Source: a virus
Taxonomy: Duplodnaviria > Caudoviricetes
Strand: one strand, 5' to 3'
IMG/VR virus record: IMGVR_UViG_3300038393_002326
Span: 1 to 31,557 of that record
Length of the DNA: 31,557 nucleotides
Part shown: in pieces, positions 1-27,519 of the stretch
How positions within the stretch are numbered: the first letter of the stretch is position 1
Layout: each line of letters begins with the position of its first letter
Program-made: the position numbers and the translations under genes
The notes under the pieces: generated by a model
What the model saw: only the letters and a program-made list of their open reading frames with translations
The model's database searches: none
Told to the model about the DNA's origin: nothing

Positions 1-2196
1 GGTCGCGGCCGGCAGGTGGCGCTTCCGGCCGACCGCCGTCTTCACGTAGCCCTTCGCGATGGCGAGGTCGTGCTGGCGCTTGATGTACGTCTTCACGCCT
101 GGATACCGGCCCATGTAACGGACCTGAATCATCTCCTTCGCTTCCTCGACGTCGATGCCCAGGTCCTTCGCCAGCTTCTGCGGACCCATGCCGTAGATGA
201 CGCCGAAGTTGATGGGCTTCGAGTTCTTCCGCTCCTTCGGGAAGCGCTTCTTCACTTCCTTCAGGCTGATGTCCTTCGGGATGTAGTCGAAGCAGGCCTG
301 CGCGGTGAGCGCGTGGATGTCCTCGTCGTTGCGGACCGCCTCGCACAGGGTCTTGTCGCCCGACACGTGCGCGAGCAGGCGAATCTCCAGCTGCGAGTAG
401 TCGCCCACGAAGAGGACGAACGGCGGGTTCTTCCCCCACCAGCGGACGACCCAGCCGTCCTTGATTTCGTAGCCGCCGTCGATACGACCTAACAGCGGGT
501 GCACCAGTTGCGGGTTGCCGCGCACCGTGAGGTGCTTCGGTCGCACAGGCTCACCCGCGTCGTTCAGGTGCCACTCATGCACCTCGATGTCACAGCACGT
601 GAGTCCCGTCGCGATGAACGCCTCGCGGATGGGGAACTCGCCGGAGACCGGGATGTTCTGGAGGTTCGGCTCGCGCGAGGAGAGGCGGCCGGTGCGCGCC
701 CCGCCCTGGATGAACCGCGTGCGGAGCCGTCCGTCCCGCGCGACCTTCTGCACCATCCCGACGAGGTAGGTGCCTAACAGCTTCCCGATTTCGCGCAGCC
801 GCTGCAGCTGCTGCGCCATCGGGTTGCCCTGCTCGTCGGCCCAGACGTCGATGTACTCCGACTTCGTGGACCACAGGCCGTTGGCGCCCTTCAGGCCTAA
901 CGGGGCGAGCGCGCACTCCTCGAAGAGGATGGCGTTCAGGACGTTGTTGCTGCCAGGATTGAAGACCTTGTGTGCAAGGTGCGGGAACTGCTTCAGCGCC
1001 GGCCGCAGCTTGTCGTCCTTGATTTTCTCCACGACCGGGTGGCCGGCGAGGCCGCTCGCGGCCCACAGCTCCTTCCGCGCCGCCGTCTTGTTCCACGGGA
1101 CGACGGCGTCGACCTTCGGCTTCCCGCGCCCCTGTGATTGCTGCTTGACCGTCTTTGGGTACTCCGCGTCGTCCGGCTTCAGCGCGAAGCGCCGCTCGTA
1201 CTCGTCGTACTGCTCGCACACCTTGCGCAGCAGGTCCGCGTCGACCAGCTGGTCGAAGTCCTGTCCCGGCCGCAGGGCGTACATCTTCGACTGGATGTCC
1301 GCGAGTTCCGCCTCGACCTGCACGCGCAGCCGCTTGAGCAGCGTCACGTCCAGCTCGATGCCGAACATCTCCATCTCGGCGAGGCAGAAGATGAAGTCGC
1401 GCTGGATGACGTCCCACACGCGCGCGGTCTCCGGGTCCTCGGCCAGCTTCGGCTGGAAGTACTCCCAGAGGCCTAACGTCTGCACCGAGTCATCGAACGC
1501 GTACTTCCCGAGACCGCGCTTGACGAGCTTCCCGTCGGCGTCGTACTGGTCCTCGATGGGAACGAGGTCGACGCGCATGATGACGTGCTCCTCGCCCTCC
1601 TCGTCGGCGTACTTCTCCTTCGGCGCGAAGTCCGGCAGCTCGGCCGCGAACTCGTAGCCGAGCAGGTGCTTCGAGCACGCCTTGAGTCCGTGCTCCCCCT
1701 CGCCTAGCAGCACCTGCTTCGGGCTCCCGACGCCGTTCGTGTTGAACAGGAACGAGAGAATCATCGTGTCCGCGATGCGGTTGCGGACGCGGATGCCCAC
1801 CTTGCCGTTCGGGCCGGGGAAGACGGCGAGCGCCTGGATGTCGGCCTTCGCGTTGTGCAGCACCCACTCGATGTCGCTGTCGAGGAGCCGCTGCAGGTCG
1901 TCGTAGACGTCTTCGTGCCGCAGCGAGAACTCGCCCGTCGAGTGGCCGACCGGGACGTAGGCGCCGTTGCGCGTGCAGACGCCGTTCTCCCACTCGAACC
2001 ACGCGAGGGAGAGGCCGACGTCCCAGAGGTCGGCGTACGACGTCAGAGAGGCGGGGTGGGCGGGCGTGAGGCCGCAGCGGCTGGCCTCGGGAACGAACTC
2101 GGTGTCGATGGCGCACACCCGCCGCCCGTCGTGCCACCGGCTCTGCTCCAGCTTCTGCAGGACGGCCTTCCAGGCCGCCCGGTCGCGTACAATCAT
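1..2196 (-). CDS. polA: Family A DNA polymerase with 3'-5' exonuclease domain (3' end truncated by window edge)
   Basis: Manual translation from ATG 2196 is open to position 1. ExoI CAIDTEF, ExoII HNAKAD, ExoIII KYAFDD, LAEMEMFGIELD, TGRLSSREPNLQNIP, motif A DYSQLEIR, motif B RKNSKPINFGVIYG. No N-terminal 5'-3' exonuclease domain. Not in the ORF track because the stop lies outside the window. Confidence 0.97.
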   Translation of the reverse strand, partial: MIVRDRAAWKAVLQKLEQSRWHDGRRVCAIDTEFVPEASRCGLTPAHPASLTSYADLWDVGLSLAWFEWENGVCTRNGAYVPVGHSTGEFSLRHEDVYDDLQRLLDSDIEWVLHNAKADIQALAVFPGPNGKVGIRVRNRIADTMILSFLFNTNGVGSPKQVLLGEGEHGLKACSKHLLGYEFAAELPDFAPKEKYADEEGEEHVIMRVDLVPIEDQYDADGKLVKRGLGKYAFDDSVQTLGLWEYFQPKLAEDPETARVWDVIQRDFIFCLAEMEMFGIELDVTLLKRLRVQVEAELADIQSKMYALRPGQDFDQLVDADLLRKVCEQYDEYERRFALKPDDAEYPKTVKQQSQGRGKPKVDAVVPWNKTAARKELWAASGLAGHPVVEKIKDDKLRPALKQFPHLAHKVFNPGSNNVLNAILFEECALAPLGLKGANGLWSTKSEYIDVWADEQGNPMAQQLQRLREIGKLLGTYLVGMVQKVARDGRLRTRFIQGGARTGRLSSREPNLQNIPVSGEFPIREAFIATGLTCCDIEVHEWHLNDAGEPVRPKHLTVRGNPQLVHPLLGRIDGGYEIKDGWVVRWWGKNPPFVLFVGDYSQLEIRLLAHVSGDKTLCEAVRNDEDIHALTAQACFDYIPKDISLKEVKKRFPKERKNSKPINFGVIYGMGPQKLAKDLGIDVEEAKEMIQVRYMGRYPGVKTYIKRQHDLAIAKGYVKTAVGRKRHLPAAT

Positions 2197-2237
2197 CTGC
2201 GGGGTGTCGTCGTGTACTCTACGTGCATTGTACCGGT

Positions 2238-2266
2238 ACAGTACTCCGGCACAATGGGGTCGTCAA
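2238..2266 (-). promoter_or_regulatory. Sigma70-type promoter for polA
   Basis: TTGACG-N17-TACTGT on the minus strand. A TACCGGTA palindrome overlaps the -10/+1 region. Confidence 0.65.
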
Positions 2267-2270
2267 GGGC

Positions 2271-2303
2271 AGAGACGCGAACGGGGACGCCGAAGCGTCC
2301 CCG
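2271..2303 (-). terminator. Hairpin terminator downstream of SSB
   Basis: Minus strand CGGGGACGC-TTCG-GCGTCCCCG (9-bp stem, cUUCGg tetraloop) followed by TTCGCGTCTCT. Confidence 0.7.
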
Positions 2304-2324
2304 CGCGTGCCTCCCCGTCGCCGC

Positions 2325-3002
2325 TCAGTTGTAGCGGACGACCTCCTCCTCAGCCTCTTCGGCGCTCGCCTGCGCCTTGCCCACCAGCTTCGCGAGGTCC
2401 TCGGCCGACTGCGGCGCGAGGTACTCCTCCCAGTTGATGAGCACCGCGTCGAGCGACTCGACGGGCGTCTTGCGCTGCTTGTTGATGAGGTCCAGCAGCT
2501 GCGACTCCGTCAGCTGGCCCTGCGGGACGAGCACGTCGCCGGTGGACGCCGACTGCCCCGAGTTGGAGCGCTCGACGTTGAACTCCTGGCCGGCGAGGCC
2601 GCCGAGCTTCACGCTGTACTTCTTCAGCGCCTTCAGCGACTTGAACTTCACGCCGAGGACGCGAATCTGGTCCTGGCCCGTCGACTTGTCCTTCCGCGTG
2701 AACTTCGTGCGGTCGAGGATGGTGTAGAACCCGACGGTGTACGGCTTGTCGCCGCTGGCGCAGAGCGGGCACTTGCCGCCCAGCTCCGGGGCGCGCAGGC
2801 ACGTGAACCAGTTCTGCCACTTCCCGTCGATTTTCAGCTGGTGCTCCTCGATGATGGGCGGGTTGTCATCGAGGAAGACGATGTTCGTCTCCGCGCCGGG
2901 CTTCATCCAGAAGCGCCACGGCTTCCCCGCCTCGGCCATCCGCTCCGCGAACTCCTGCTCCTTCTGCTCGAACGCCTCGTACCCCCGCTTGATGAACGAC
3001 AT
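2325..3002 (-). CDS. Single-stranded DNA-binding protein, gp32-like
   Basis: RFWMKPG...IVFLDD, putative Zn ligands H...C...CPLC, acidic C-terminal tail (AEEAEEEVVRYN). Lies between primase and polymerase; GGGAG SD upstream. Confidence 0.75.
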   Translation of the reverse strand: MSFIKRGYEAFEQKEQEFAERMAEAGKPWRFWMKPGAETNIVFLDDNPPIIEEHQLKIDGKWQNWFTCLRAPELGGKCPLCASGDKPYTVGFYTILDRTKFTRKDKSTGQDQIRVLGVKFKSLKALKKYSVKLGGLAGQEFNVERSNSGQSASTGDVLVPQGQLTESQLLDLINKQRKTPVESLDAVLINWEEYLAPQSAEDLAKLVGKAQASAEEAEEEVVRYN

Positions 3003-3111
3003 GCCGTTCTCCCTGGTGTGCTGCCTACTGGCCCAGAGCCGTAGAGGCGGGCGGTCGGTCAGCGTGATGGTGTCCTACATGGTGACGCCGGCAGTATGCC
3101 GTGAGTGTACC

Positions 3112-3140
3112 AGTATACCGTCGCTGCAACGCCTTGTCAA
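3112..3140 (-). promoter_or_regulatory. Near-consensus sigma70 promoter for SSB
   Basis: TTGACA-N17-TATACT on the minus strand. Confidence 0.8.
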
Positions 3141-3168
3141 CGGTAAATGACCGTTCAGTACCGGTACG

Positions 3169-4272
3169 TTACCTGCGCGCCCGGTGCCGCCGCTGGGACG
3201 TCAGCTTGGCGTACTTGAGCGCGAGCCAGGACTTCCGGTCCCGCACCGCGAGGCGGGCGCGCTCTCGCAGCGCGTCCACGGGCTCGTCGGGCGTGAGCTT
3301 GTCCAGCGGGTCGGTCTTCGGCCACTCGACCACCGTCACGCGCGGCACGCGCCGCCGGAGGTGCTCCATGAGGCCGGGGTGCTCGATGCCACTGCGCTCG
3401 ACACCCCACGTCGCGAGCCGCCCCTCGTTGTCCGCGTCGAACGCGATGCAGACCTCGCCGCGCAGCGTGAGGCTGCCGAGGATGAGGCGCATCTGCTCCT
3501 CACTCCACTTCGCGCCCATCGTCGCCACAGCGACCGCCCCCTCGGTGCTCGCGCCGTAGGGAAGGACGTCCTGCCAGTCGGGCCGCTTCAGCCAGCCCGA
3601 GAGCGCCTCCGCGCTGGCCGGCGCCTCCACGACGACGAGGAAGTCGACCGGGCGGACGAGTCGGTGCTCACCGAACAGGTGCTCCGACTTGAGGAAGCCG
3701 TTGGGGTAGGTGCGGTACTTCGCGTCCTGCGTGTCCGGGTCCGTCTCACCGGGCAGGAGCCGCCCCTGCACCGCCACGACCTCGCCCTTCTTGTCGCGGA
3801 GCGGCAGCCACGCCCGCGCCTCGGCCTCCCCGTACGCCTTCGCCTCCTCGGGGTCGAGACCGCGCCCCACCCAGTACGGCGAGCCGGTGCCGAGAGCCAC
3901 GAGGATGGACGCGGGGATGAGCGCGACCTGCCGCGCGATGAACGCGGACTCGCCCATCTCGTCGTCCTCGGCCATGATGGTGAAGGCCTTGAGGTCGTTC
4001 AGCTGCTCGGCCGTCATGAGGCCGTCGCGCACGCGGTATCCGCCCGCCTTCACCACGGCGTCGTATATCGTCCCCGAGAAGCAGCCGGGGATGAAGCAGT
4101 TCGCCGGAGACATGCCCTCGGTGATGAGGGCGCCGAACTTCCGCCCCTTGTCGTGCCCGGAGTCGTGCGTCCACGGCGCGAGCGGGCAGTCGCAGGTCAG
4201 GTTGTCGCCCGACCGCTTGAAGCGGCTGGAGCCCAGCTGCTCAAGAATGTACTCCAAGGACTCGACGTTCAT
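3169..4272 (-). CDS. DNA primase (Zn-binding domain + TOPRIM)
   Basis: N-terminal CPLAPWTH...CFIPGC Zn module; PLRDKKGEVVAVQGR; KY..P.GF.KSEHLFG; TOPRIM VVVE and FDADNEG. Confidence 0.88.
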   Translation of the reverse strand: MNVESLEYILEQLGSSRFKRSGDNLTCDCPLAPWTHDSGHDKGRKFGALITEGMSPANCFIPGCFSGTIYDAVVKAGGYRVRDGLMTAEQLNDLKAFTIMAEDDEMGESAFIARQVALIPASILVALGTGSPYWVGRGLDPEEAKAYGEAEARAWLPLRDKKGEVVAVQGRLLPGETDPDTQDAKYRTYPNGFLKSEHLFGEHRLVRPVDFLVVVEAPASAEALSGWLKRPDWQDVLPYGASTEGAVAVATMGAKWSEEQMRLILGSLTLRGEVCIAFDADNEGRLATWGVERSGIEHPGLMEHLRRRVPRVTVVEWPKTDPLDKLTPDEPVDALRERARLAVRDRKSWLALKYAKLTSQRRHRARR

Positions 4273-4517
4273 CCGGCGAGGCCCAGGTACGTGCGAAGCG
4301 CTTTCTGGTTGTCACTCCGACCCGCGTTGTACGCGGTGTCTTTGACGTACTGCAGGAGGTTGAGGAGGGAGAGGCAGGGCCGCTCCTCGGTATGCGGGAA
4401 CAGCACGGCGTCGTCCCGCCAGCAGCCGGTGGCCGCATCGCGCCGGAAGCCCAGCGCCGCCATCTGGTCTTCGGTCAGGGGCGCCTGCAGCGCCGCCGCC
4501 GTGTAGTCGATTGTCAT
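4269..4517 (-). CDS. Hypothetical protein (~82 aa)
   Basis: ATGA overlap with the primase start and GC-rich third codon positions. Start placed at ATG 4517 because the promoter at 4547-4575 overlaps the longer ORF-track start. Confidence 0.65.
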   Translation of the reverse strand: MTIDYTAAALQAPLTEDQMAALGFRRDAATGCWRDDAVLFPHTEERPCLSLLNLLQYVKDTAYNAGRSDNQKALRTYLGLAG

Positions 4518-4546
4518 AGATACCGCTGGTGTACCAGCGTGGCGCC

Positions 4547-4575
4547 AGTATGCCACGCGCGAATGTCTTCGTCAA
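4547..4575 (-). promoter_or_regulatory. Sigma70-type promoter for hypothetical gene + primase
   Basis: TTGACG-N17-CATACT with an extended -10 TG. Confidence 0.6.
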
Positions 4576-4708
4576 GGTACCCAACGGATACGGTGCCGGG
4601 ATGGGGGCTCTTCCAGCCGCTCTTGGGGGAACACGCTGCCTGGGTCGTTCCCTCCCCAGGACCCCTTCCGACACCGCATCCGAAGCGTACCGCGCGCTTC
4701 GGACAGAA

Positions 4709-5980
4709 TCAAGCGTACTGCAGCGCGTCGTCGTCCTCGATGATGACCGTGCCGACGCCGAGGTCCTTGCTCTCCATCGTGTCGAAGTCCCAGCCGACGC
4801 GGATGGGCTCGGGCCGCGCCTCGCGCACCGCGAGCGGGAGGAGGTTCAACACGTTGTTCACCCGGTCATCGTCGCTCTGCTCCAGGCCGATGAGGATGTC
4901 GACGTCCTGCGCGAACGCGTCGGAGCCCCGCGCGTCGGACATCGTCATCTGCGTCTTCGACTTCTTCTGGTCTGCGCCACGCCCCGCCTGGATGCTGATG
5001 ATGGTCGGGACCTTCTGGACCTGCGCGATGCGTTTGAAGCCGCGCGAGAGGTTCTGCTGCTGCTCCCACGCCTGCCGCGCCTTCTCCTCGTCAATGAGCA
5101 GGTAGGCGCCGTCGATGAAGAGGATGTCGGGCTTGAACTCCTCCACCTTCGCGTCGATACCGCTCACCGTCGACACGCCGTGCACCCACCGAAAGTCCGG
5201 CACCGCGCCGGCCGCGAACGCGGCGTCGAGGTCCGCCATAGCCTTCTCGTAGCGCTGTTCCTCGACGTCGGTCAGGTCGCCGGTGCGGAAGCGCTCGTAC
5301 GGCAGCTTCGCGTGGAGTGCGTCGAAGCGCCGGTCCATCATCTCGTCCGGCAGCTCCTTGTTGACGAACATCACGCGGTAGCCGGCCCGCCACGCCGCGT
5401 ACGCGAGGCGCAGCATGAACCACGTCTTTCCGGTCTTCGGTCGTGCCATCACGCCGACGTACATCTCTTTCTGCCACCCCTGCGTCATGTCGTCCAGCGA
5501 CGGCCACGGCGTGGGGATGCCTAACAGACCGACCTTCGCCTTCCGCTGCCGGTAGGCGTCGAGGCGCTGCGAGATGTTGTCGGTGATGAGTCGCTCGATG
5601 TGCCGCGTGCCTAACGCCGAGAGGCGCACCAGCTGCTGGCCGAGCGACGTGGCGACGTCGAGCGGGTTGCCGAGGTCGAGCCGCGTGATGTGCTGCTCCA
5701 CGACCTCGAAGGCCCGGTTGCGCACGAACTGCTCGACCATCGCATCGACGTAGACCTCGACCGGCTCGGCCGCGTAGCCGAACTGGTAGCCGGGGAACTG
5801 CGCCTGCACCGTCTGCGGCGACGGGACCTTGCGGTACTGCTTGTGGAAATCGAGGAGGTACTTGTAGACCCCCGCGCTCTCCGCGTCCGCGAACATCTCA
5901 GGCTGCACCCGGCGGTCGAGGAAGACCGCGAGGCTCTGGTCCGAGAGGGCGCGGGAGAGCGCCATACGTCCGAAGTCCAA
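4709..5980 (-). CDS. dnaB: DnaB-like replicative helicase (SF4)
   Basis: GIPTPWPSLD, Walker A ARPKTGKT, FVNKEL, Walker B ILFIDGAYL, ARGSDAFAQDVD. Start is TTG 5980 or ATG 5965. Confidence 0.92.
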   Translation of the reverse strand: MDFGRMALSRALSDQSLAVFLDRRVQPEMFADAESAGVYKYLLDFHKQYRKVPSPQTVQAQFPGYQFGYAAEPVEVYVDAMVEQFVRNRAFEVVEQHITRLDLGNPLDVATSLGQQLVRLSALGTRHIERLITDNISQRLDAYRQRKAKVGLLGIPTPWPSLDDMTQGWQKEMYVGVMARPKTGKTWFMLRLAYAAWRAGYRVMFVNKELPDEMMDRRFDALHAKLPYERFRTGDLTDVEEQRYEKAMADLDAAFAAGAVPDFRWVHGVSTVSGIDAKVEEFKPDILFIDGAYLLIDEEKARQAWEQQQNLSRGFKRIAQVQKVPTIISIQAGRGADQKKSKTQMTMSDARGSDAFAQDVDILIGLEQSDDDRVNNVLNLLPLAVREARPEPIRVGWDFDTMESKDLGVGTVIIEDDDALQYA

Positions 5981-6607
5981 TTATGCCTCCCCCTTGAAGA
6001 GCCCGCGCAGCTGCTGCTGCCGCTCGCGCCGCCAGTTCCGCCCGCCCCGGTCCTCGCCCACGACCTCGATGGGCACGGCCGCCTCCGCGAGAAGGCTCGC
6101 GACGTCGACCGTCGACTGCTCCGCGACCTTCGCGAACTCCACGTTGCTGGTGAACACCGTGACCTTCTGCCGCTGCGTGCGGTCGCGAATGAGCTTCTCC
6201 AGTTCCGCCTCCACGAAGCCGCTCTTCCCCTTGTGCTCCTTGAGGAAGTCGTCCAGCACCAGCACGTCGACCGCGCGCATCCGCTCGGGGATGGTCGTGT
6301 GGTCGTCGTACGCGGGCCGCTGGATGGCGAGGTCCGGCACGTCGGACGACATCACGTAGTGCGCGGTGAACCCGAGCCGCAGTGCGTGCTTCGCGATGAC
6401 GCACGCGAGCGCCGTCTTGCCCGTCCCGTTCTTGCTCGCCCAGAGGTATACGCCGCCGCCCTGCGCGACCCCCTCGCGGAGGTTGCGCAGGTAGTTGGCG
6501 ACGTGCGCCTTGAACGGCGCAGTGTCTGGGACCTTCGAGAGCGTGGCGTCCCAGTACTTCTCGGGGATGTGGGCCTTGGCGAGGTCCGTGCTGGTCAGCG
6601 TACGCAC
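5981..6607 (-). CDS. DnaC/IstB-like AAA+ ATPase (helicase loader)
   Basis: AHIPEKYWDATL, Walker A NGTGKT, Walker B VLVLDD, TVFTSN. GTG 6607 follows the ligase stop by one base and is preferred to the overlapping 6691 start. Confidence 0.85.
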   Translation of the reverse strand: MRTLTSTDLAKAHIPEKYWDATLSKVPDTAPFKAHVANYLRNLREGVAQGGGVYLWASKNGTGKTALACVIAKHALRLGFTAHYVMSSDVPDLAIQRPAYDDHTTIPERMRAVDVLVLDDFLKEHKGKSGFVEAELEKLIRDRTQRQKVTVFTSNVEFAKVAEQSTVDVASLLAEAAVPIEVVGEDRGGRNWRRERQQQLRGLFKGEA

Positions 6608-6608
6608 G

Positions 6609-7973
6609 TTAGGCCGCGTCGTACACGCAATCCGAGGGGTTTTTCTCGGAAATCCGCATGCGGATGAAGCAGGGATGCCGCATGAGACCACTGTCCGGCC
6701 AGCGCTGCTGGAACGTCACCATCATCGGCTCCCCGATGTAGTCAATCGGGCGCTCGGTGAAGAGCCGCGCCTGCTCCTGCGTGAAGCCGCTGCAGGAGCC
6801 CATGTGAACGAGGGCGTGCGTCGGAATCATGGACAGGGCGTCGTCCACCAGCTCCGTCGGGTTCCCGACGATGTTCTTCTCCATCTTCGGAGTGAGCTGG
6901 TTGATGGGCACCCACTGCGCGAAGGTGATGGCCCCGACCACCTCGGTGTTGTACATGCCCTTCCCCATCTCGAAGCCGGTCACGATGACGTCGGCCTCGC
7001 TGAAGGGCTTCACCTTGAGCAGGTCGGCCGAGCGCCGGCCCGGCAGCGTCGTGTCGGTGTACGGAGCCGTGAGGCGCTTGAGCATGATGCCCTCCCAGCG
7101 CTCCGTCTGGCTCCGCTGGAGCAGGGCGCGCTTCTCCTCCTCGGTCCGCGCGATGGGCGAGCGCTTCGCGCTCTTCGCGAAGCCCTTCCACATACCGGCG
7201 ATGCCGCCCTGGTCGAGGAGGTGCTGCCGCGCCTCGCTGTACCACGTGTCGAGCACCGCGCGCCGCTGCTCGTACGGCAGGCCGCGCAGGTCGCGCCCGT
7301 TGAACCACAGGCAGTCGAGGAGCCACGCGAAGACCAACCCCTGCTCGTCCTGCTTGCGCAGCGCTTCCGCGTACGACGAGCCCATGATGCTGCGCATCGC
7401 GCGAAACCCACCCTCGTGGTCGAGTTCCACGTCGAACACCGTCACCCCGTCCATCGGCACCGGCCACTCGGCCATGTGCTGTATGTGGTACGAGTTCGCC
7501 GCGAGGCGGCCAGAGTGCTTGCCGATGACGCGCGTCGTCGCGCGGAAGCCGACGTTCCCCTTGTCGGCGCCGGTCGTGATGAACTCGTCGCGGTCGAAGT
7601 CCGGGTTGATGCCCGGCCAGAACGTGAGCAGCTGCCGCTCGCCGTCGTACTTCCGTTCGGCCACCCACTCGTCGGAGCGGAGCAGGTCATCGAGGTCGAG
7701 GTTCGCGTAGTCCTCGATGTTCTTCGCGAGCATCGGGTGAATCTGGTCGAACGGGTCCGGCGACAGTTGGCCGAAGACCTCGGACAGCGGCAGCTCCAGC
7801 ACCACACCCGTGTCCTCGATGCGGACCTTGAGCGACTTCGTCGCGTTGACCTTCTCGATGATGACGGCCGTGTCGGTGTCGCGGTCGGCGTAGTTCACCA
7901 GCACCCGCATTCCCTTCTTGTACTTCGCGTAGGGGAGCGGGACGGCGCGGTCGATGGGGATGCTGAGTGGCAT
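6609..7973 (-). CDS. ATP-dependent DNA ligase with N-terminal extension
   Basis: Motif I KYDGER, III FDVEL, IIIa LLDCLW, IV EGIMLK, V LLKVK, VI RHPCFIRMR. ATG 7973 chosen because a promoter and repeat array occupy 8009-8053. Confidence 0.93.
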   Translation of the reverse strand: MPLSIPIDRAVPLPYAKYKKGMRVLVNYADRDTDTAVIIEKVNATKSLKVRIEDTGVVLELPLSEVFGQLSPDPFDQIHPMLAKNIEDYANLDLDDLLRSDEWVAERKYDGERQLLTFWPGINPDFDRDEFITTGADKGNVGFRATTRVIGKHSGRLAANSYHIQHMAEWPVPMDGVTVFDVELDHEGGFRAMRSIMGSSYAEALRKQDEQGLVFAWLLDCLWFNGRDLRGLPYEQRRAVLDTWYSEARQHLLDQGGIAGMWKGFAKSAKRSPIARTEEEKRALLQRSQTERWEGIMLKRLTAPYTDTTLPGRRSADLLKVKPFSEADVIVTGFEMGKGMYNTEVVGAITFAQWVPINQLTPKMEKNIVGNPTELVDDALSMIPTHALVHMGSCSGFTQEQARLFTERPIDYIGEPMMVTFQQRWPDSGLMRHPCFIRMRISEKNPSDCVYDAA

Positions 7974-8008
7974 CGGGGAGTCGTCTGGTGGTGGGTCGTC
8001 GCGTGCGG

Positions 8009-8038
8009 ACGGTAACCGCGAATACCGGTACATGTCAA
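8009..8038 (-). promoter_or_regulatory. Sigma70-type promoter for ligase-loader-helicase genes
   Basis: TTGACA-N18-TACCGT. One TACCGGTA sits inside the spacer and another just upstream of the -35. Confidence 0.55.
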
Positions 8039-19491: not shown

Positions 19492-19707
19492 CTACGCGAC
19501 GGTGCCCGTTCCCGTCCCCGCGCCGGCTCCGCAGGCGGTCGTGACGGAGACCAGGGCGTTCGCCTGGATGTAACCGACGATGGCGGCGGCGAGGCGGTCG
19601 CAGAAGTGCTGGCGCTCGGTGGTGCCGTTGTTCGTCGCCTCGATGGGGAAGTCCGCGTCCAGCTGGGCCTTGATGGCGGCGGACATCCCGGCGGTGGTCA
19701 TGGGCAT
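19492..19707 (-). CDS. Small baseplate-region hypothetical protein (71 aa)
   Basis: Lies between the spike and gp25; LAAAIVGYIQANALV, Gly/Thr-rich C-terminus. Confidence 0.7.
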   Translation of the reverse strand: MPMTTAGMSAAIKAQLDADFPIEATNNGTTERQHFCDRLAAAIVGYIQANALVSVTTACGAGAGTGTGTVA

Positions 19708-19710
19708 GCG

Positions 19711-20838
19711 CTACTCACTCAGCTGCTTTTTCGTGATGTCCTGTCCCGGCACCAGCGGCGAGAGGACGATGGGCGGCGACGTCGGCGTTCCAGGCGAAGA
19801 CGACACGTGCGTGTGCGTGTTGAAGTGGCTCTGGACGAAATCCTTCGTCGCCAACTGCTGCGCGGCCCCCTCGCCGCCGACGTAGACGTGGCTCGACGCG
19901 GCGACGGAGATGGTCACCTTGCCGGCCGTCATCGTGATGACGTTGCTGTTGCCGTCGGTGACGGTGATGGTCTTCGTCTCGGGGTCGAGCTTGATGTTCT
20001 GCCCCTGCCAGTCCCACAGCTGGATGTACCGGGCGCCGGACTTCGACGCGATGCGCAGGAACTGGTTCCACGCGTCACGGAGTTCTAGCTTCTGCTGCCC
20101 CGCCGTGCTCTCCATGCGGAACTCGCCGCCGGCCATGTCCTTCAGACTGACGTACTGTCCCGCGATGACGTCCGGGTCGCTCCCGTCCGGGTCGTTGAGG
20201 CCGTCCGCGAGGATGAGCCGGTGGGACGCGTTGCCGGTGTTGCCGGCGGCATCCGTGAAGCCCGTCTGGATGTAGCTCCGCAGCTTCGTGACGCCTAACG
20301 CCGTCATCTCCAACAGGCGGCCGAAGCGCTCGAAGAGCCGAACGTAACCGCCCTTGCCGGGATGGTCGTTGAACTCCAGATGGTGGCCCGTCTGCGACAT
20401 CCACACGCGGCGGTGCGGCGTGTAGAACGTCGAGACGTGGTCGTGGAAGGCGCTGTGCTCCGCGTGGTCCGTCGGGTCCTTCGCGTCCACGTGGTCGAGG
20501 TCCGGCTCCGCGTCGGCGCCAGCGAAGTCGGTCATCTTCGGGTGGACCGCCTGGAAGGGCGCCTTCGTCGGGTTGTCCGAGTTGCCCATGCCCGCGTACC
20601 AGACGCCCACCCACACGGGCTGATTCGGGTCGCCGTCCGCGAACTCGACCCACACGCCCTGCCCCTCCTTCGGCACCTCGAAGACGCCCGGCGGCAGGCA
20701 CGGCATCGCCCACGTCGACTCGTCCATGCCTAACGGGTACGGGCACCGCACGCGGATGCGTCCGACCATCCACGGGTCGTTGTTGTCCACGCACCACCCG
20801 AGGTACTTCCCGACGAACTTGCGGCCCGTGTACGTCAC
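19711..20838 (-). CDS. Baseplate spike, gp5/gpV/VgrG-like (OB fold + beta-repeat + HxH tip)
   Basis: GKYLGWCVDNNDP..GRIRVRCP...WAMP...VPKEGQGVWVEFADGDPNQPVWVG; C-terminal NTHTHV. GTG 20838 overlaps the upstream TGA (GTGA). Confidence 0.9.
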   Translation of the reverse strand: MTYTGRKFVGKYLGWCVDNNDPWMVGRIRVRCPYPLGMDESTWAMPCLPPGVFEVPKEGQGVWVEFADGDPNQPVWVGVWYAGMGNSDNPTKAPFQAVHPKMTDFAGADAEPDLDHVDAKDPTDHAEHSAFHDHVSTFYTPHRRVWMSQTGHHLEFNDHPGKGGYVRLFERFGRLLEMTALGVTKLRSYIQTGFTDAAGNTGNASHRLILADGLNDPDGSDPDVIAGQYVSLKDMAGGEFRMESTAGQQKLELRDAWNQFLRIASKSGARYIQLWDWQGQNIKLDPETKTITVTDGNSNVITMTAGKVTISVAASSHVYVGGEGAAQQLATKDFVQSHFNTHTHVSSSPGTPTSPPIVLSPLVPGQDITKKQLSE

Positions 20839-22487
20839 TGGCTCCCCTTCGCGAGCACGCGCTGCGCCCCGGCGCTGACGCCGGCCGGCTTGTTGCTGTT
20901 CAAGGTGAGGTGCGCGTCGGCGTCCCCGACGTCGGCAGCCGCGTTGATGGTGGCCGTGTTCGCGGTGTGCGTGTCCGACGGACGCTGCGCGGTCTCGTCC
21001 TTGAACACCTTCTCCACCGTGTCCGCCGGCTTCTGCGGGAGGCCGCTGCCTAACGGGAAGCCGTCGCGCGTCAGCGACATCTCCGTGAGGTAGCCGGAGC
21101 CGTCGTAGACCTGCTTGCACTCCTCGACGTACCACGCGCCGTTCCACTTCACACCGACGTTCCAGACGGCAATCAGCTGCCCGGCCTCCAGGCGCGGGTC
21201 CCCGAGCACGACCGCCCGCGCGCGGACCGCGTCCTGCTCTTCGAGCAGGTACGACAGGCCCGCCTTGACGCGGCTCTCCGGCGACTGGTGCGCCGCCGTC
21301 TCGTCCGAGACGTAGGCCTCGACCTTGATGGTCAGCTGCTGCCCCGGCGTCAGCACCGTGTTCTCGGACGACAGCCCGTTGGCCGACACGATGGCATCCG
21401 TGGTCACGCCGTACTTGGCCGCGAGCGAGTGCACCGTCTCGCCCGCCTTCACCACGTGCGTGAGCGCGGTGTTGTCGGCCTTGTACATCTTGACTTCGAC
21501 CGGGTCGCCCACCTTCCCGGTCCCGGCGCTGTGCACCTTCGTGAGGTGCGCCTCGCGCGACCCGAGTTCGGCCGCCGCGTTGATGGCGTAGTGCTCCCCG
21601 ACAATCTTCGTGTCGGCGGCCTTCGTCTGCGGCCCGTGCTGCGCGTTGATGGGCGCGTCGAGCACCGGGTGCGCGCCCATGACGGCGTGCCGCGTGGCCG
21701 CCGTGTTCACCTCGGGCTCGAACGAGAGAAGCCGCGCGCCTAACGCCGGGGAGCGGTACGTGTAGTAGCCGGAGAACGTCGAGGGCCAGATGCGCGGCCG
21801 GAAGTACAGGACGTTGTCCTTCACGTACAGGTCGATGGGGACGACGTTCTCGCCCTTCCCTTCCGCGATGGTGCGCAGGTTGTACAGGAACTCCATCGGC
21901 GAGCCGACGGCCTGACTGAAGCGCCACCGCTTCCCCTCCCACGGGTCGGGGACCTTCGTGCCGTCCTCGCCCTCCGGGCCGAACTTGATGTCGAGGTTGA
22001 ACTTGAGGATGCTGCGCGCCTCCTCGACCATGTACTCGGCCATCTCCTTGATGCTGAACGCCTCCTTGCGCTTCAGGAGACGCGGCACGATGGGGACGGA
22101 GAGCAGGATGCTCTTGTCGTACGCCGTGATGGTCGTCTCGACGTGGCCGCCCTGCGGGAAGGACGGCTTCTGCCGGAAGAAGACGAACGTCCGGTTGCCC
22201 GACATCAGACGGCTGCCGACGTAGCCGAAGTTCACGGTGACCTCGGTCTTGAGGTCCTCGGTGAGCATGGCGTTGTCGATGAACGCATACGCCTCGTCGG
22301 GGACGGTGAGCGTCACGTACGACGCGCCGTTGATGCTCGTCGTGAACTCGAAGTGCGTCGGGTGCACCTCGAAGCTCTGCGCCTCGCTCATACCCGGCCG
22401 CGTGAACTTCACGAAGACCGTCGGCGTCTCCCCGTTGCTCGCGGTGAAGTCGAGCGCCGCCGCCTCGGCCGTCGAGAAGTCCGCCAT
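20835..22487 (-). CDS. Baseplate hub, gpD/gp27-like, with internal LysM domain
   Basis: VNFGY, PSFPQGG...ITAYD, LYFRP, GDPRLEAGQLI...GVKWNGAWYV; LysM HVVKAGETVHSLAAKYGV...IVSANGL...LTPGQQLTI. Confidence 0.85.
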   Translation of the reverse strand: MADFSTAEAAALDFTASNGETPTVFVKFTRPGMSEAQSFEVHPTHFEFTTSINGASYVTLTVPDEAYAFIDNAMLTEDLKTEVTVNFGYVGSRLMSGNRTFVFFRQKPSFPQGGHVETTITAYDKSILLSVPIVPRLLKRKEAFSIKEMAEYMVEEARSILKFNLDIKFGPEGEDGTKVPDPWEGKRWRFSQAVGSPMEFLYNLRTIAEGKGENVVPIDLYVKDNVLYFRPRIWPSTFSGYYTYRSPALGARLLSFEPEVNTAATRHAVMGAHPVLDAPINAQHGPQTKAADTKIVGEHYAINAAAELGSREAHLTKVHSAGTGKVGDPVEVKMYKADNTALTHVVKAGETVHSLAAKYGVTTDAIVSANGLSSENTVLTPGQQLTIKVEAYVSDETAAHQSPESRVKAGLSYLLEEQDAVRARAVVLGDPRLEAGQLIAVWNVGVKWNGAWYVEECKQVYDGSGYLTEMSLTRDGFPLGSGLPQKPADTVEKVFKDETAQRPSDTHTANTATINAAADVGDADAHLTLNSNKPAGVSAGAQRVLAKGSQ

Positions 22488-22783
22488 CAGCCCAGCACCT
22501 CAAGGAAGAGTCGCTGCCGGCTCGGCGCGCGCAGCGTGTCGCCCGGCGTCAGGGCGGCGAACGGGTCGAGGGCGTCGTTGAAGTCCGCGAGCACCCACCA
22601 GTACCGGGGGTCGCCGTAGAGCGCCCCCGCGATGGAGGCGAACGTGTCCCCCGGCTGGACGTCGTAGAACTGGTCGCTCGTCTTCGGGACGGTACTGTAC
22701 CGGGGCCGCAGCCCGTAATATAGCTCCGTCCCCTTCTGGATGACAGTACAGTACCGGTACCGCGAGACAGCCGGCGTGGGCAT
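22487..22783 (-). CDS. LysM/gpX-like baseplate protein
   Basis: YDVQPGDTFASIAGALYGDPRYWWVLADFN...LTPGDTLRAP. Confidence 0.88.
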   Translation of the reverse strand: MPTPAVSRYRYCTVIQKGTELYYGLRPRYSTVPKTSDQFYDVQPGDTFASIAGALYGDPRYWWVLADFNDALDPFAALTPGDTLRAPSRQRLFLEVLG

Positions 22784-22794
22784 GGGCGGGGTCC

Positions 22795-23622
22795 TTAGAA
22801 GCTGTTGCCGAGGACGCGCCGGATGTCGCCGCGCCCGCTCGCGAGGCTCACGTTGTTCGGACGACCGAGGTCGTCGCGCACCTCCGGCGCGTACGCGAGC
22901 GTGAGTTCAGCCGTCGCGAGCATCGGCAGCAGCGTGAGCGGGTCGAACATCTTCGACGCCTCAATCTTGACGTTCTTGACGACGAAACGCTCGCCGGGGA
23001 TGTACTTGCCGAAGTAGAACCAGACGAGCGGCGCCTTGCCTAACGCCGCCTTGTCCGTCTCGTTCTGCGTCCGGGTGAGCAGCGGGCGTTGCGTCAGGCT
23101 CTTGAGTCGGTCGAGGTCCTGCTTGATGTGCGACCGGTCGCGGAAGCCGTAGAAGAAGTTGAGCGTGAACGTGACTTCGCGCGCCCCGCCGTTGATGAAC
23201 TGGTAGACGGGGCCGTTCTGTCCCGGCGCCTTGATTTCCGCCCAGTCGGGCGACAGCTGCTCGGAGATGGCTTCGGGGTTCATCTGGAAGAGCAGCTTCT
23301 GCTGAACGACGTCGCGCCGCGTCCCCTTCGTGAACGAGAGCGACAGCAGCCGGCCGGCGTCGTCGCGGTTCTCCGCGACGGCGTTGTCGACAGTCACGTC
23401 GGCCGGCGACTCCCAGGCGAGGATGCCTTTCTGCAGCGAGCCGCCGGCCGCCGCGAGCTTCATCCCCGCCTGCAGCACCGCCCGGCCTAACGGGTTGTTC
23501 ACCGCCGCCGTCGCGAGTGCGCCGGCCTTCAAGCTGCCGAGCAGGGGGACGCTCGGCAGTGGGAAGGACAGCGTGTTCGCGGTGCCCAGGACGTCGATGA
23601 TTTGGTCCTTCGTGGCGTTCAC
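22795..23622 (-). CDS. Tail tube initiator (CIS tube / gpU-like)
   Basis: FQMNPEAISE...W.EIKAPGQNGPVYQFINGGAREVTFTLNF; lies directly after the tape measure gene. Confidence 0.78.
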   Translation of the reverse strand: MNATKDQIIDVLGTANTLSFPLPSVPLLGSLKAGALATAAVNNPLGRAVLQAGMKLAAAGGSLQKGILAWESPADVTVDNAVAENRDDAGRLLSLSFTKGTRRDVVQQKLLFQMNPEAISEQLSPDWAEIKAPGQNGPVYQFINGGAREVTFTLNFFYGFRDRSHIKQDLDRLKSLTQRPLLTRTQNETDKAALGKAPLVWFYFGKYIPGERFVVKNVKIEASKMFDPLTLLPMLATAELTLAYAPEVRDDLGRPNNVSLASGRGDIRRVLGNSF

Positions 23623-23634
23623 GAGTCTCCCTCG

Positions 23635-26600
23635 TTACGGCATGGCAGGGATGGGGATGATGCTGCTCCCCGACAGATTCTTGCCGCGCTCCCGGTCGGT
23701 GCGCACTTGGTTCTGCACCGCGCTGACGGCGGCCTCGCCTAACACCTTGTCCTTGAGCTTCATGGTCACGTGCATCGCGCGTCCGGCGACCGCCTTCATG
23801 TCGGAGCCGACGGCCTCCAGCGCGCCCTTCATGGAGTCGATGGACTCCTGCAGGTTCTGCTGGTGTGCCGCCGCCTTCGCCTGCGGCGCCGTCTGACCCT
23901 TCGCGAGCAGGTCGAGGAACTTCGCCTGCTCGGCCTCGAACGGGTCCTTGAGCGCCGTCTTCGGGAACTCCCAGACGCGGAACGGCGAGTACTTCATCAG
24001 CGTCTTGTTGACGTCGTAGATGGCGTCCTTGTTCTCATCCAGCTTGCCCCCGAGGTTGTCGCCGAGGTCGTGGATGTCGTCCTCGCTCGGCGGCGGGGGG
24101 TTGCCGACGCCACTCGCCGTCACGGCGTCGACTCCGATGAGCTTGTCCAATCCCGCCGCCTGCAACCGGTCGCGAATCATCGCGTTCAGGTCTGTAGACC
24201 CGAGTGCGCCGAGCATGAGCTTCCCGTTCGTGAGGGCGAGCGGGTTCTCGTACATCACGGCGCTGCGGAGATTCGCGAGGTGCCCGATGTACGCGTCGAG
24301 CAGCCGCGTGTAGTCCCCGTTCTTGCGAATGGGGTCGTTCTTGTTCTGGTACCGGTCGAGCGTCGCCTCCAGCGTCGAGAGGTCGTCGTCGGAGATACGC
24401 TGGTAGTAGTGCTTGTCCGTCTCCTGCCCGTACCGCGTGTGGCTGTCCACCAGCGTGTCTAGCACGCCCGCGCTCGCGCCCATGTTCTGCAGACCGCGCG
24501 CGACGTCCCCGAACTTCTGGCGCAGCCAGATGACGAACGGGTTGTCCCACAGCTTGTGGAACATCGACATGATGCCGTTGAGCGCCGTCATGGCCTTGTC
24601 CTTCACCCACGTCCAGGCGCCGCCCAGCTTGTCCGTGATGAAGTTGCCGATGCGGCTCACCCAGCCCCACCACGACACGAAGACGCCCTTGATGTGCGTC
24701 CAGCTGTTCAGGAAGAACGTGCGGAACGCGCCCCACTTGAAGTAGAGCACCGCCAGCACCGCGACGACCGCCATGATGGCGAGGCCGACGGGGTTCGTCG
24801 CCATCGCGACGGCCATCTCGACCATCGTGCTGAGGAACATGCGACCGAACGACACCACAGCGCCGCCCGCGATGCGCGCCGCCGAACCGATGGCCGAGAG
24901 CCCGCGTGCGATGCCGCTCCCCGCGCCGAGGAGGCCCTGCAGCGCGAGCGCGCCGATGTTCTGGAACCCGCGCCCGACGGCACCGACGAGACGCCCCGGC
25001 GCGCTGCGCACGGCGCGGAAGGCGCCCCCGGCGCGGTTCGCCACGACGGACCACACGTCCGACGCCATGCCGCTGATGCCACCGGCCGCCGCGTATGCCC
25101 GACGTCCGCGACCGAACAGACCGCCGGCCGCCCCGTGCGCCGCTTGCGCGGCGGTGAGCGGCCCCATGATGCCGCCGGAGCGGCCGAACATGAGGAAGCG
25201 GAGCCCACGCACGGACGCCACGACGCTGCGCGCCGCGTTCGCCAGCCGGAGGAACGCGCCCGTGAGCAGGTTCCACGGCGTGACGATGGGCGCGCGCGCC
25301 ATCCACAGCAGCGTGCCGCCGATGAGGCGCAGTCCGGTCAGCGTGCGCGGGATGGCGATGAGCGCCGTGAGCACGCCGACGAACTTGCCGACGGCGACGC
25401 CCCACGCGAGGAACCGGTGCGGGTTCGCGGCCGAGAGGCTCTGGAGGAACGTCTCGAGCCGCCGGCCCCAGTTCGGCGCAATCTTGCCGATGACCTTCGC
25501 GAGCTTCTCCAGCCCGTCGATGACGAAGTCGGAGATGCCCTTGAAGACGTCCCCGAAGCCGCTCATGAAGCCCTTCCCGAACTGCCCCAGGCGGTAGAGG
25601 ATGCGGAACCACTTCTCGAAGGCCGCGACGCCACCCGGCGTGCGCTGCAGCGCCTTGAACGTGTCCTCGGAAATCGACCCCTTCGCGCCGGTCATGTTGC
25701 CGAGGGCTTCCATGAGCGCGTCCTTCACCACGTTGAACTTCGCGGTGCGCTCCGCGAGGTGGAACGTGTTGCGCTCCAGCATCCGGCGGTACACCGCCAA
25801 CGCGCCGCCTAACAGCATGAACGTCGCCGTTAGGCGCGGGATGACGTTGCGCATCGTCATGTTCACGCCGAGCCACGGCCGCGTCATGTGGTTGACGAAG
25901 TCGATGGTGCCCGGCTGGAACCCGCGCGCGTAGGCGCCCGCGCGCCGCCCCATCATGACGCCGCCATACGTGAGCAGCGCGGCGCCGAGCGCCTGCACCC
26001 ACGTCGTGAGGCCGCGCGCGATGCCCTGGTGCTTCGTGAGCATCTGGCCGAGGTGGCCGATGCCCGTGGCGAGGGCGCCGATGGGGCCGGAGAGCCCGTT
26101 GATGACCGGCTTGCCTAACGACTGCCCGAGAACTTGGAACGTCCCCCGGAGGCGCGACAGCTGGTAGTCCAGCTGCTTCGAGCGGATGTAGAGCGCGTAG
26201 AGGCGGTTGGAGTAGCGGCGGCCGTACTCATCGAACCGTTCGTCCGAGAACATGTTGTCGAGGATGAACTTCCATCGACCCATGTTCTGCGTGAGCGTCG
26301 TCGCCCCGGCGAAGGCCTGTCGGCCCGTGAGCATCGTCTGGAACAGTTCCGACCCGCTCCGCGCGCCGCCCTTCGCCATCGACTTCGCGTACATCTCCTG
26401 CAGGAAGCGCTGCATCCCGTAGCCGGGGGACTGCTTCTCTAGGTCGCGCAGGTGCCCGACCGAGAGGTCCATCCCCATGCTCGCGGCGACCTTCCGCGCC
26501 TCCTTCTTCGGGTGGTTGAACCCGAGGACGATTTGCCGGAGGTACTGCGCCGCCGCCTCCGGGGGCAGGCCGCCCAGCGTCATCGACGCGTAGGTGCCGA

Positions 26601-27258
26601 GCAGTTCCTTGTACGGGATGCCTAACGCCGCGCCGGACGACGAGACGAGCGGGAAGAAGCGCGCGACCTCGCTCCCCCGCACCTTACCGAACTTGACGGT
26701 CTGGAAGAACGCGTCGGAGACCTCGGCCGCCTTGTCCGCGCTGAGGCGGTAGGCGTTCATCGTGCCGACGAGGCCGTCGAGGACGGTCTTCGTGTCGGTG
26801 AACGTCACCGCCGCCGTCTTCGTCGCCTCGCTCGCGATGTAGCTCGCGTCGGCGGTGTTGAGGAAGCCCGCCGAGACGGCCTCGTAGACCGCCTGCGACT
26901 GCGTGACGAGGTCGCCGGGGAAGTCGGTAATCTGCTTCAGGATGGAGTCCGAGAGCCGGCCCATGTTGGACGTGAACTCGTCCGCGATGGTCTCGACTTC
27001 GGAGAGGGCCTTCCCGAACTCGACGGCCTGCTTGACCGGGAACGCGAGCGACGACAGCACCGCGCCGGCCGCGAAGACCGAGCGCGTGATGTTGTTGAAG
27101 CTGGACTCGACGTCCACGGCCGCCCGGTTCATGCCGCGCGCGGCCGAGTAGGCGGCGTACTCCATCGACCGGAACGCGCGCTGCACGTTGCCGGCGCGGT
27201 AGCTGACGCCGTCCTTCAGGACGATGGCGATGCCCAGGTTCAGCGGACTCGCGAACAT
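23635..27258 (-). CDS. Tail tape measure protein
   Basis: 1207 aa, Ala/Gly-rich helical sequence, TP901-like core (AAEVSDAFFQTVKFGK), MATNPVGLAIMAVVAVLAVLYFKW and Trp-periodic repeats. Lies downstream of the chaperone. Confidence 0.93.
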   Translation of the reverse strand: MFASPLNLGIAIVLKDGVSYRAGNVQRAFRSMEYAAYSAARGMNRAAVDVESSFNNITRSVFAAGAVLSSLAFPVKQAVEFGKALSEVETIADEFTSNMGRLSDSILKQITDFPGDLVTQSQAVYEAVSAGFLNTADASYIASEATKTAAVTFTDTKTVLDGLVGTMNAYRLSADKAAEVSDAFFQTVKFGKVRGSEVARFFPLVSSSGAALGIPYKELLGTYASMTLGGLPPEAAAQYLRQIVLGFNHPKKEARKVAASMGMDLSVGHLRDLEKQSPGYGMQRFLQEMYAKSMAKGGARSGSELFQTMLTGRQAFAGATTLTQNMGRWKFILDNMFSDERFDEYGRRYSNRLYALYIRSKQLDYQLSRLRGTFQVLGQSLGKPVINGLSGPIGALATGIGHLGQMLTKHQGIARGLTTWVQALGAALLTYGGVMMGRRAGAYARGFQPGTIDFVNHMTRPWLGVNMTMRNVIPRLTATFMLLGGALAVYRRMLERNTFHLAERTAKFNVVKDALMEALGNMTGAKGSISEDTFKALQRTPGGVAAFEKWFRILYRLGQFGKGFMSGFGDVFKGISDFVIDGLEKLAKVIGKIAPNWGRRLETFLQSLSAANPHRFLAWGVAVGKFVGVLTALIAIPRTLTGLRLIGGTLLWMARAPIVTPWNLLTGAFLRLANAARSVVASVRGLRFLMFGRSGGIMGPLTAAQAAHGAAGGLFGRGRRAYAAAGGISGMASDVWSVVANRAGGAFRAVRSAPGRLVGAVGRGFQNIGALALQGLLGAGSGIARGLSAIGSAARIAGGAVVSFGRMFLSTMVEMAVAMATNPVGLAIMAVVAVLAVLYFKWGAFRTFFLNSWTHIKGVFVSWWGWVSRIGNFITDKLGGAWTWVKDKAMTALNGIMSMFHKLWDNPFVIWLRQKFGDVARGLQNMGASAGVLDTLVDSHTRYGQETDKHYYQRISDDDLSTLEATLDRYQNKNDPIRKNGDYTRLLDAYIGHLANLRSAVMYENPLALTNGKLMLGALGSTDLNAMIRDRLQAAGLDKLIGVDAVTASGVGNPPPPSEDDIHDLGDNLGGKLDENKDAIYDVNKTLMKYSPFRVWEFPKTALKDPFEAEQAKFLDLLAKGQTAPQAKAAAHQQNLQESIDSMKGALEAVGSDMKAVAGRAMHVTMKLKDKVLGEAAVSAVQNQVRTDRERGKNLSGSSIIPIPAMP

Positions 27259-27351
27259 GCGGGGGCTCCGGTGTGCAGATACCCGTACCGGTAAAGTACC
27301 GGTACGGGTGGAGATGCCGTTAGGCGGCGCCCAACGGCGCGCCGCGAGGCG

Positions 27352-27519
27352 TTAGGCCTTCGCCTCGTGCTCCTTCTGGAGGCGCAGCCGCTCGACAAAC
27401 CAGCGCCGCTGCTCGCCGGGCATGTCGAGCATTTCGTCCGGGGACCAATGCAGGCCGCCGTACGCGAGGAAGAACATGTCCTCGCGGACGCTGTTCAGTC
27501 CTTCGGGAAGAAAAAACCC
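27352..27519 (-). CDS. Frameshift extension of the tail assembly chaperone (G-T type)
   Basis: The -1 frame after the slippery site reads GFFLPEGLNSVREDMFFLAYGGLHWSPDEMLDMPGEQRRWFVERL, an HW...R..W pattern typical of small pre-tape-measure ORFs. Confidence 0.75.
   Translation of the reverse strand, partial: GFFLPEGLNSVREDMFFLAYGGLHWSPDEMLDMPGEQRRWFVERLRLQKEHEAKA

Follow-up and report, generated by a model that had tools for sequence, protein, structure and literature searches.

The 31,557-nucleotide virus record IMGVR_UViG_3300038393_002326 (Duplodnaviria; Caudoviricetes), which we analysed over its whole length and call the window, is a 31.6-kb fragment, with 67.5% GC, of a contractile-tailed phage. 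It raises the question of why a single heptamer, GCCTAAC on one strand and GTTAGGC on the other (hereafter the word), is written over and over into its coding sequence, using rare codons and stop codons. Here we describe the word, the codon footprint it leaves, its distribution in bacterial chromosomes and its near-absence from a close relative of the phage. By analogy with known systems, the word probably points to a DNA-reading machine in the host, of the DNA-uptake kind.

The window contains 28 exact copies of the word (0.89 per kb), 19 as GCCTAAC and nine as GTTAGGC, together with two first-base variants, ACCTAAC at 488 and CCCTAAC at 9797, the latter intergenic. An earlier sequence-only reading of this DNA had listed these copies and variants, and all its positions are right on recount; that listing gives CCTAAC cores, and the GCCTAAC 7-mer begins one base ahead of each. 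It expected about three copies by chance at an assumed 70% GC, which is too high; under independent bases we obtain 3.5, and an order-2 Markov model expects 0.78. In 2000 shuffles of synonymous codons over all genes, which preserve protein and codon usage, we obtained 0.97 ± 0.95 copies with a maximum of 5, against 24 observed within the gene models, and the enrichment thus survives a shuffled null.

The codon footprint is equally clear. TTA accounts for 20 of the 871 leucine codons of the phage, and all 20 lie within G-TTA-GGY (19 GGC, one GGT), making TTA the sole leucine codon restricted to one context. The claim that every coding copy in this orientation is an in-frame TTA-GGY therefore holds, and TTA is not used at all elsewhere. 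On the plus strand, all 21 occurrences of CTAA are inside CCTAAC. Copies in the opposite orientation are made differently, again as had been claimed: five form Ala-stop gene ends (the ligase, an Arc-like gene, a 68-residue open reading frame (ORF) at 11101–11304, a baseplate wedge gene and the frame downstream of the tail chaperone), three are CTA-ACG (Leu-Thr) and one is intergenic (27319). Since the word uses several frames, both orientations and stop codons, it acts at the DNA level; it is under DNA-level and not protein-level control, which supports the proposal that it is selected or generated at that level wherever the protein permits.

A close relative of the phage, G239 (123,873 bp, with direct terminal repeats), is syntenic with the window at a protein identity of about 30–67%. 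It contains just six copies of the word and uses none of its 175 x-Leu-Gly opportunities (0/175), and the word is therefore not a trait of the phage family. We found no closer phage relative than G239; metagenome scans returned none or distant ones, and helicase homologues reached at most 58%. A drive for particular amino acids in the phage was considered and rejected, as the relative keeps leucine at 7/17 of the TTA sites versus 25/51 other Leu-Gly sites (p = 0.78). A phage-specific signal, or translational control by rare TTA codons as with bldA, would fit the confinement of TTA to one context, but the nine copies in the other orientation use no TTA, a syntenic relative does without the word, and host chromosomes and unrelated phages carry it. 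We find such a signal scarcely credible, and the host-wide distribution described below refutes it in the main.

Scanning the GTDB species genomes for a pattern of three copies gave 121 loci, 80 with flanks. Dispersed high densities were found in Gemmatimonadaceae and Chthoniobacterales; dense loci elsewhere proved to be attC-like arrays or tandem repeats. Three Gemmatimonadaceae metagenome-assembled genomes (MAGs) contain 5,795, 8,747 and 4,740 copies (1.4–1.5 per kb), and one Chthoniobacterales MAG has 1.55 per kb. Among 401 Gemmatimonadaceae genomes, densities reach 1.6 per kb, with 115 genomes at or above 0.1 per kb, 94 at or above 0.2, 53 at or above 0.4 and 15 at or above 1.0. Within the G001 genus (26 genomes), 12 are at 0.76–1.5 per kb and 14 at or below 0.02. 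Of 41 genomes around the Chthoniobacterales MAG G004, 25 are at 0.44–1.55 per kb, with the word in the form GCCTAACGA where read. These tallies take in G174 (negative), G202 (positive) and G264 (in the class at or above 0.1 per kb), and the denominators also take in G061, G101, G185, G263, G343, G452, G469 and G496; no conclusion rests on any of these genomes. In a phylum-wide draw of 151 genomes, none besides G001 exceeded 0.3 per kb; the trait is therefore family-level and patchy. In an rpoB tree of 16 rows, two of them partial, the positive members of the G001 genus form one nested clade, and G186 and G002 (positive) with G144 (0.25 per kb) lie in another, so the word was gained or lost more than once. 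The scan thus nominated Gemmatimonadaceae as the host family, and the idea that the word derives from the host and can serve as its fingerprint has stood up well: it saturates part of this family and a Chthoniobacterales group and is nearly missing from the closest phage. As a separate observation, ACCTAAC occurs almost as often as GCCTAAC does in a piece of G288 (10 versus 12) and is raised in G186 and G367, possibly as a second dialect.

In host chromosomes the word behaves as a graded, retained signal. In 400 kb of G159, 232 of 359 in-frame TTA codons are G-TTA-GGC, and further frames are also used. One-mismatch variants are enriched 5–17-fold at several positions relative to word-negative genomes (GCCCAAC 17-fold, TCCTAAC 12-fold, GACTAAC 10-fold), and the flanks of the word differ among host lineages as dialects. 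In rpoB, compared among five species differing at 10–22% of fourfold sites, TTA in the word is kept in 153/164 comparisons; the corresponding figure is 78% for common leucine codons and 48% for the rare ones taken together. Close neighbours are depleted, with 5.2% of host gaps below 100 bp versus 12.8% expected. Orientation follows gene direction more than replication. With origins placed from parS and GC skew, GTTAGGC lies on the inferred leading strand in 305/550 copies of G159 C9 (p = 0.012, uncorrected for gene direction), a share that is inconsistent between leading and lagging genes, and in 70/123 copies of G269 (p = 0.15). The sequence-only reading had likened the word to DNA-uptake sequences, Chi and HIP1 and had suggested examining strand polarity; a leading-strand share of 55–57% in these two hosts disfavours the Chi analogy.

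The genomic pattern (asymmetric, about one copy per kb, graded, with dialects, non-polar, retained and present in probably temperate phages) is closest to, and appears to work like, the DNA uptake sequences (DUS) of Neisseriaceae and the uptake signal sequences (USS) of Pasteurellaceae. We therefore favour, as an explanation that we hold to be evenly balanced between right and wrong, an uptake-sequence-like drive of the host that acted also on the phage as a prophage and so put the word into it. A host machine of pilus, ComEA and ComEC would bind and import DNA bearing (C)GTTAGGC more often than other DNA. Imported homologous DNA would recombine, and point mutations that make the word would spread where the protein tolerates them, mostly as x-Leu-Gly spelled NNG-TTA-GGC, the codon pattern that we observe. 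A temperate phage residing in the chromosome would pass through the same cycle until it reached the host-level density seen in the window. From these patterns we infer the identity of the host, lysogeny and the reader.

Other phages that carry the word are consistent with a prophage route. G239 encodes a tyrosine integrase, outside the region matched by the window, and the phage group is therefore probably temperate; for the phage of the window this would follow from the integrase of its relative. In a viral scan, we fetched 80 loci with a two-copy pattern, and six, with GC above 64% or near 58%, had 0.37–1.3 dispersed copies per kb. As whole phage records, G243 has 49 copies in 41 kb, G244 has 55 in 45.6 kb, G240 has 18 in 49 kb and G246 has 17 in 41.6 kb. 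In an integrase scan that covered 63 of 113 predicted genes over five records, clear integrases were found in G244 and G240 and a weak match in G243 (E = 3e-7), and none among the eight genes scanned of G246, a record that is 70% complete. G240, G243 and G244 thus appear as three unrelated integrase-bearing phages with the word, their hosts being suggested by the word itself; by variant spectrum, G244 resembles the G001 genus and G243 the high-GC lineages. A further record, G245 (24 copies, 58% GC), was dropped as a word-bearing phage, with a control word present 19 times and only 1/17 TTA in the word. The phage of the window uses 19/73 x-Leu-Gly opportunities, compared with 231/827 in G159, 51/435 in G269 and 0/306 in word-negative genomes; it is as full as the richest host read (G159) and fuller than G269.

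Several observations weigh against the uptake explanation. The phage fills 26% of its opportunities, twice the share of the best flank-matched closed genome (12%), and unlike the hosts it has no excess of one-mismatch variants; the 31.6-kb window contains no integrase. Inverted pairs in terminators are a feature of DUS and USS, and we saw no inverted-pair excess: G159 pairs within 100 bp are 16 same-strand and 13 opposite-strand, and depleted overall. Spacing is otherwise near random in the host (coefficient of variation 0.96 versus 1.01 ± 0.04) and in the phage; no even spacing was seen in the phages. Unlike DUS and USS, which are unrelated to each other, the same core occurs in two phyla, and within one family it arose independently two or more times. 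Neither a spacer-like nor a prophage match to the phage was present in 26 genomes of the G001 genus (window 11500–31400) or in five word-rich genomes (window 1–19900), and a sheath profile run over the 401 family genomes gave distant matches only (best E = 1e-58). Natural competence of a Gemmatimonadaceae host is likewise something that we infer. Finally, no reader was found, as set out below, and a word-free gap of 2.7–3.2 kb surrounds parS in four orthologous regions, which would fit a reader inside the cell.

Such an intracellular reader is a tentative but possible alternative. A sequence-specific protein of recombination, repair, nucleoid organisation or self/non-self defence would read GTTAGGC, and the phage would be selected or driven to carry the word while replicating in the cell, integrated or not. 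Saturation of the phage to the level of the richest hosts, strong retention across species and the parS gap in 4/4 regions read (gaps above 2.5 kb make up 2.8% of host gaps) argue for it, as does the word-bearing G246 with its lack of an integrase among the eight genes scanned; a transferable single gene would also fit the patchiness of the gain inside one genus and the recurrence of the core in a second phylum. Being orthologous, however, the four parS regions do not count as independent; replication polarity is slight, unlike that of Chi or the FtsK-orienting polar sequences (KOPS); lysogeny suffices for the well-characterised word-bearing phages, which have integrases; and no candidate protein tracks the word. 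A further reading, which we think unlikely, is that a horizontally transferable GTTAGGC reader was gained repeatedly by Gemmatimonadaceae and once more by Chthoniobacterales and defines self DNA in these dominant soil bacteria. Phages would then have to write the word into their genes, up to the maximum density of hosts, to count as self, and the identity to the attC core would let the reader pick integron cassettes out of environmental DNA.

In the search for a reader, we found that competence genes, pilins, the integron integrase and the methyltransferases searched do not track the word. Word-positive genomes have ComEC (3/3), a ComEA-type helix-hairpin-helix protein (4/4) and DprA (4/4), and type IV pilins too, but ComEC, ComEA-type and DprA genes occur equally in word-negative genomes, and pilin sets, compared between two genomes of each kind, overlap. 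ComP_DUS gave no match in five genomes, and also matched 0/14 controls. An operon with fimT/pilV/pilW/pilX-like genes (G159:C8, L656 6393–10583) is 87–93% identical among word-positive species of the genus; as a word-specific feature, this minor-pilin operon was rejected, being present in 211/401 family genomes and in only 24/53 word-rich ones.

Methylation would offer another way to read the word. As with HIP1 or in Campylobacter, a host methyltransferase would mark the word, and methylated DNA would be preferred in transformation, recombination or repair. The penultimate A of GCCTAAC resembles the asymmetric sites of N6-methyladenine enzymes, and a gamma-class (NPPW) methyltransferase-like gene of about 1,070 residues (PF02384; for example G001:C208, G177:C34 and G166:C37) is present in 9/9 word-positive Gemmatimonadaceae searched. 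In addition, the cited part of a HIP1 study ties that word to a methylation-dependent rise in transformation (bioRxiv 10.1101/2024.09.10.611283). The NPPW gene is also present in 6/8 word-negative Gemmatimonadaceae, however, is inherited vertically along the species tree and had no comparable long-frame match in the Chthoniobacterales searched. PF01555 enzymes, the other class searched, do not track the word either (3/9 positive and 5/8 negative Gemmatimonadaceae). With its graded edges and its dialects the word does not look like the sharp site of an enzyme, and we consider this explanation quite unlikely.

The core of integron attC sites is GTTRRRY, and the word might be a common attC core, spread or selected via the integron integrase or cassette capture. 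Indeed, we found attC-like repeats bounded by GCCTAAC...GTTAGGC in Rhodanobacter, Methylotenera, an Acidobacteria MAG and G005; those of G005 end in TTCCGTTAGGC, and TTCCGTTA is enriched in G159. Yet G005 has the repeats and only 89 copies genome-wide, and IntI scores above the cut-off in 6/14 positive versus 7/13 negative Gemmatimonadaceae and in 4/5 positive versus 4/5 negative Chthoniobacterales relatives. Moreover, inserting DNA at specific sites cannot account for the synonymous changes of codons in rpoB, and an integron origin is very improbable. The array of G005 itself (C35, 8–27 kb) is an attC-like cassette array in a genome without genome-wide enrichment; the proposal that this island is transferred word-rich DNA was rejected on that account.

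Flanks of the word narrow down the host of the phage. Copies followed by GA make up 88/97 in G004 versus 2/28 in the phage, and the G004 dialect is therefore excluded for the phage. The phage flank R-S-C, a pattern chosen after seeing the data, applies to 14/28 copies. Its share is 22–26% in G269, G292, G534, G421 and similar genomes, while members of the G001 genus have 8–10% and three Chthoniobacterales about 2%. For G299, G341, G375, G402, G430 and G456, the densest genomes outside the G001 genus, flanks are known from genome-wide pattern counts only. Leucine codon use of the phage resembles that of G269 (72.5% GC; a 5.3-Mb and a 1.1-Mb contig). The R-S-C shares and leucine codon use thus make a Gemmatimonadaceae lineage of high GC the likely host.

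Every gene of the window is on the minus strand, and the word is found throughout. The replication module (1–9601, minus strand) encodes a DNA polymerase fragment, a protein like single-stranded-DNA-binding proteins, a primase, a DnaB helicase, a DnaC loader, a ligase, and Rep-like and Arc-like proteins; the polymerase is named from its sequence and gene order. It contains seven exact copies, counted up to position 9733. In the polymerase, the variant GTTAGGT (487–493, minus) is spelled CTG-TTA-GGT (Leu-Leu-Gly), and GTTAGGC on the minus strand is spelled CTG-TTA-GGC (772–778), CCG-TTA-GGC (895–901) and ACG-TTA-GGC (1471–1477); the helicase has CTG-TTA-GGC (5519–5525) and GCG-TTA-GGC (5609–5615), both minus. 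On the plus strand, GTTAGGC forms the Ala-stop of the ligase at 6608–6614, where the overlapping loader gene reads the site as CCT-AAC, and that of the Arc-like gene at 9331–9337. The variant GTTAGGG (9796–9802, minus) is intergenic.

The other 21 exact copies are in the lysis and contractile-tail module (10013–31545, minus strand), which encodes a holin, endolysin, fibre, baseplate, tape measure, chaperone, tube and sheath. The minus-strand copies of GTTAGGC here are GCG-TTA-GGC (11873–11879) and CAG-TTA-GGC (12503–12509) in an 896-residue tail protein, CTG-TTA-GGC in a 519-residue tail protein (15563–15569), ACG-TTA-GGC in a baseplate wedge gene (18312–18318), GCG-TTA-GGC (20293–20299) and CCG-TTA-GGC (20728–20734) in the spike/hub gene, CCG-TTA-GGC (21048–21054) and GCG-TTA-GGC (21738–21744) in the LysM tail gene, and GCG-TTA-GGC (23038–23044) and CCG-TTA-GGC (23485–23491) in a 275-residue gene. 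The tape measure has four, spelled GTG-TTA-GGC (23737–23743), CTG-TTA-GGC (25807–25813), TCG-TTA-GGC (26113–26119) and GCG-TTA-GGC (26620–26626). Plus-strand GTTAGGC is read as GGC-CTA-ACG (Gly-Leu-Thr) at 13410–13416 and 13533–13539 and as CGC-CTA-ACG (Arg-Leu-Thr) in the tape measure at 25829–25835; it is the Ala-stop of the 68-residue ORF, just before the likely ATG of the endolysin (11100–11106), of the small baseplate wedge gene (19025–19031) and of the frame downstream of the tail chaperone (27351–27357), and it is intergenic upstream of the tape measure at 27319–27325.

Some features of the window stand apart from the word. The palindrome TACCGGTA occurs 17 times, at 2231, 3159, 8023, 8045, 10590, 10601, 14162, 16298, 19450, 22752, 27286, 27297, 28249, 28903, 28933, 30925 and 31273; 16 copies sit 16–157 bp upstream of gene starts and are often doubled. 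G239 holds 38 copies, and this intergenic motif, common to both phages, is likely a promoter or operator of the group. G239 also has repeated promoter-like sites, CCCCTTGACAA, and a dispersed word of its own, TTCNTANGAA, which is found in exact form 38 times over the 124 kb, roughly half of these inside predicted genes; TTCNTANGAA is missing from the window and shows no enrichment in five Gemmatimonadota genomes, and may be an operator or the word of another host. The 3' end of the tail chaperone (27352–28178) reads GGT TTT TTC TTC CCG and is overlapped by the downstream frame, which is kept in G239 (63%), so that the two probably give a programmed frameshift product. The 68-residue ORF (MTDSVWVVG...), between a tail gene and the endolysin, has the opposite codon style and a lower GC content at third codon positions, and its stop is spelled by the word. 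DNA nearly identical to the window turns up in metagenomes of soil and the rhizosphere. Two runs contain half or more of the words sampled, and one of these runs may be the source of the window; other soil runs contain near-identical, low-depth pieces with four listed differences, which are of no use for a test of selection.

To our knowledge, words this abundant have been described from few lineages, namely Neisseriaceae, Pasteurellaceae and cyanobacteria. In Creative Commons-licensed PubMed Central papers and bioRxiv main texts we found no description of GCCTAAC/GTTAGGC and, among the matches listed, no relevant Gemmatimonas methylome; a methylation motif could still sit in supplements or in REBASE. 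With the word on or off between sister species and shared with another phylum, natural positive/negative pairs are available for finding the reader, and these would test uptake-driven molecular drive against intracellular selection as its origin. Phages offer a sharp test, temperate versus lytic, and counting a 7-mer can nominate a host where neither spacers nor prophages link a soil phage to one. The window contributes a phage saturated to host level, a word-poor sister to serve as its control, and additional phages, probably temperate, that carry the word.

Among known systems, Chi and KOPS are also short asymmetric chromosomal words, and Chi can ride on phages; unlike them, the word has a leading-strand share of just 55–57%, inconsistent once gene direction is considered. 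Integron attC sites share its letters at the ends of the attC-like repeats found here, but the genomic copies are single dispersed 7-mers in genes, with no hairpin, and IntI does not track them. Cyanobacterial HIP1 (GCGATCGC) is similarly hyper-abundant, conserved, non-polar and of debated function, and the cited parts of two recent sources now tie it to transformation (PMC13756078; bioRxiv 10.1101/2024.09.10.611283); HIP1, however, is palindromic, has known methylases and extends over nearly the whole phylum, whereas GCCTAAC is asymmetric and patchy and has no assigned methylase. From USS and DUS the word differs in sequence and phyla, in its length of 7–9 bp, in the lack of a ComP match (0/5 genomes; 0/14 controls) and of an inverted-pair excess, and in being patchy within a genus with the same core in two phyla. 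It resembles them in being a short asymmetric word at about one copy per kb, on both strands and in genes, with graded mismatches and dialects, and perhaps in a build-up in temperate phages, which for uptake sequences can serve to assign hosts (PMC6776037, PMC7371117, PMC1939737, as far as the cited sections go). In those sections, graded mismatch excess and molecular drive are described for uptake sequences (PMC1939737), and DUS dialects are used to assign donors (PMC7371117). Out of 2045 phages, USS counts there singled out all 12 that lysogenise Pasteurellaceae, large and likely lytic phages being USS-poor (PMC6776037).

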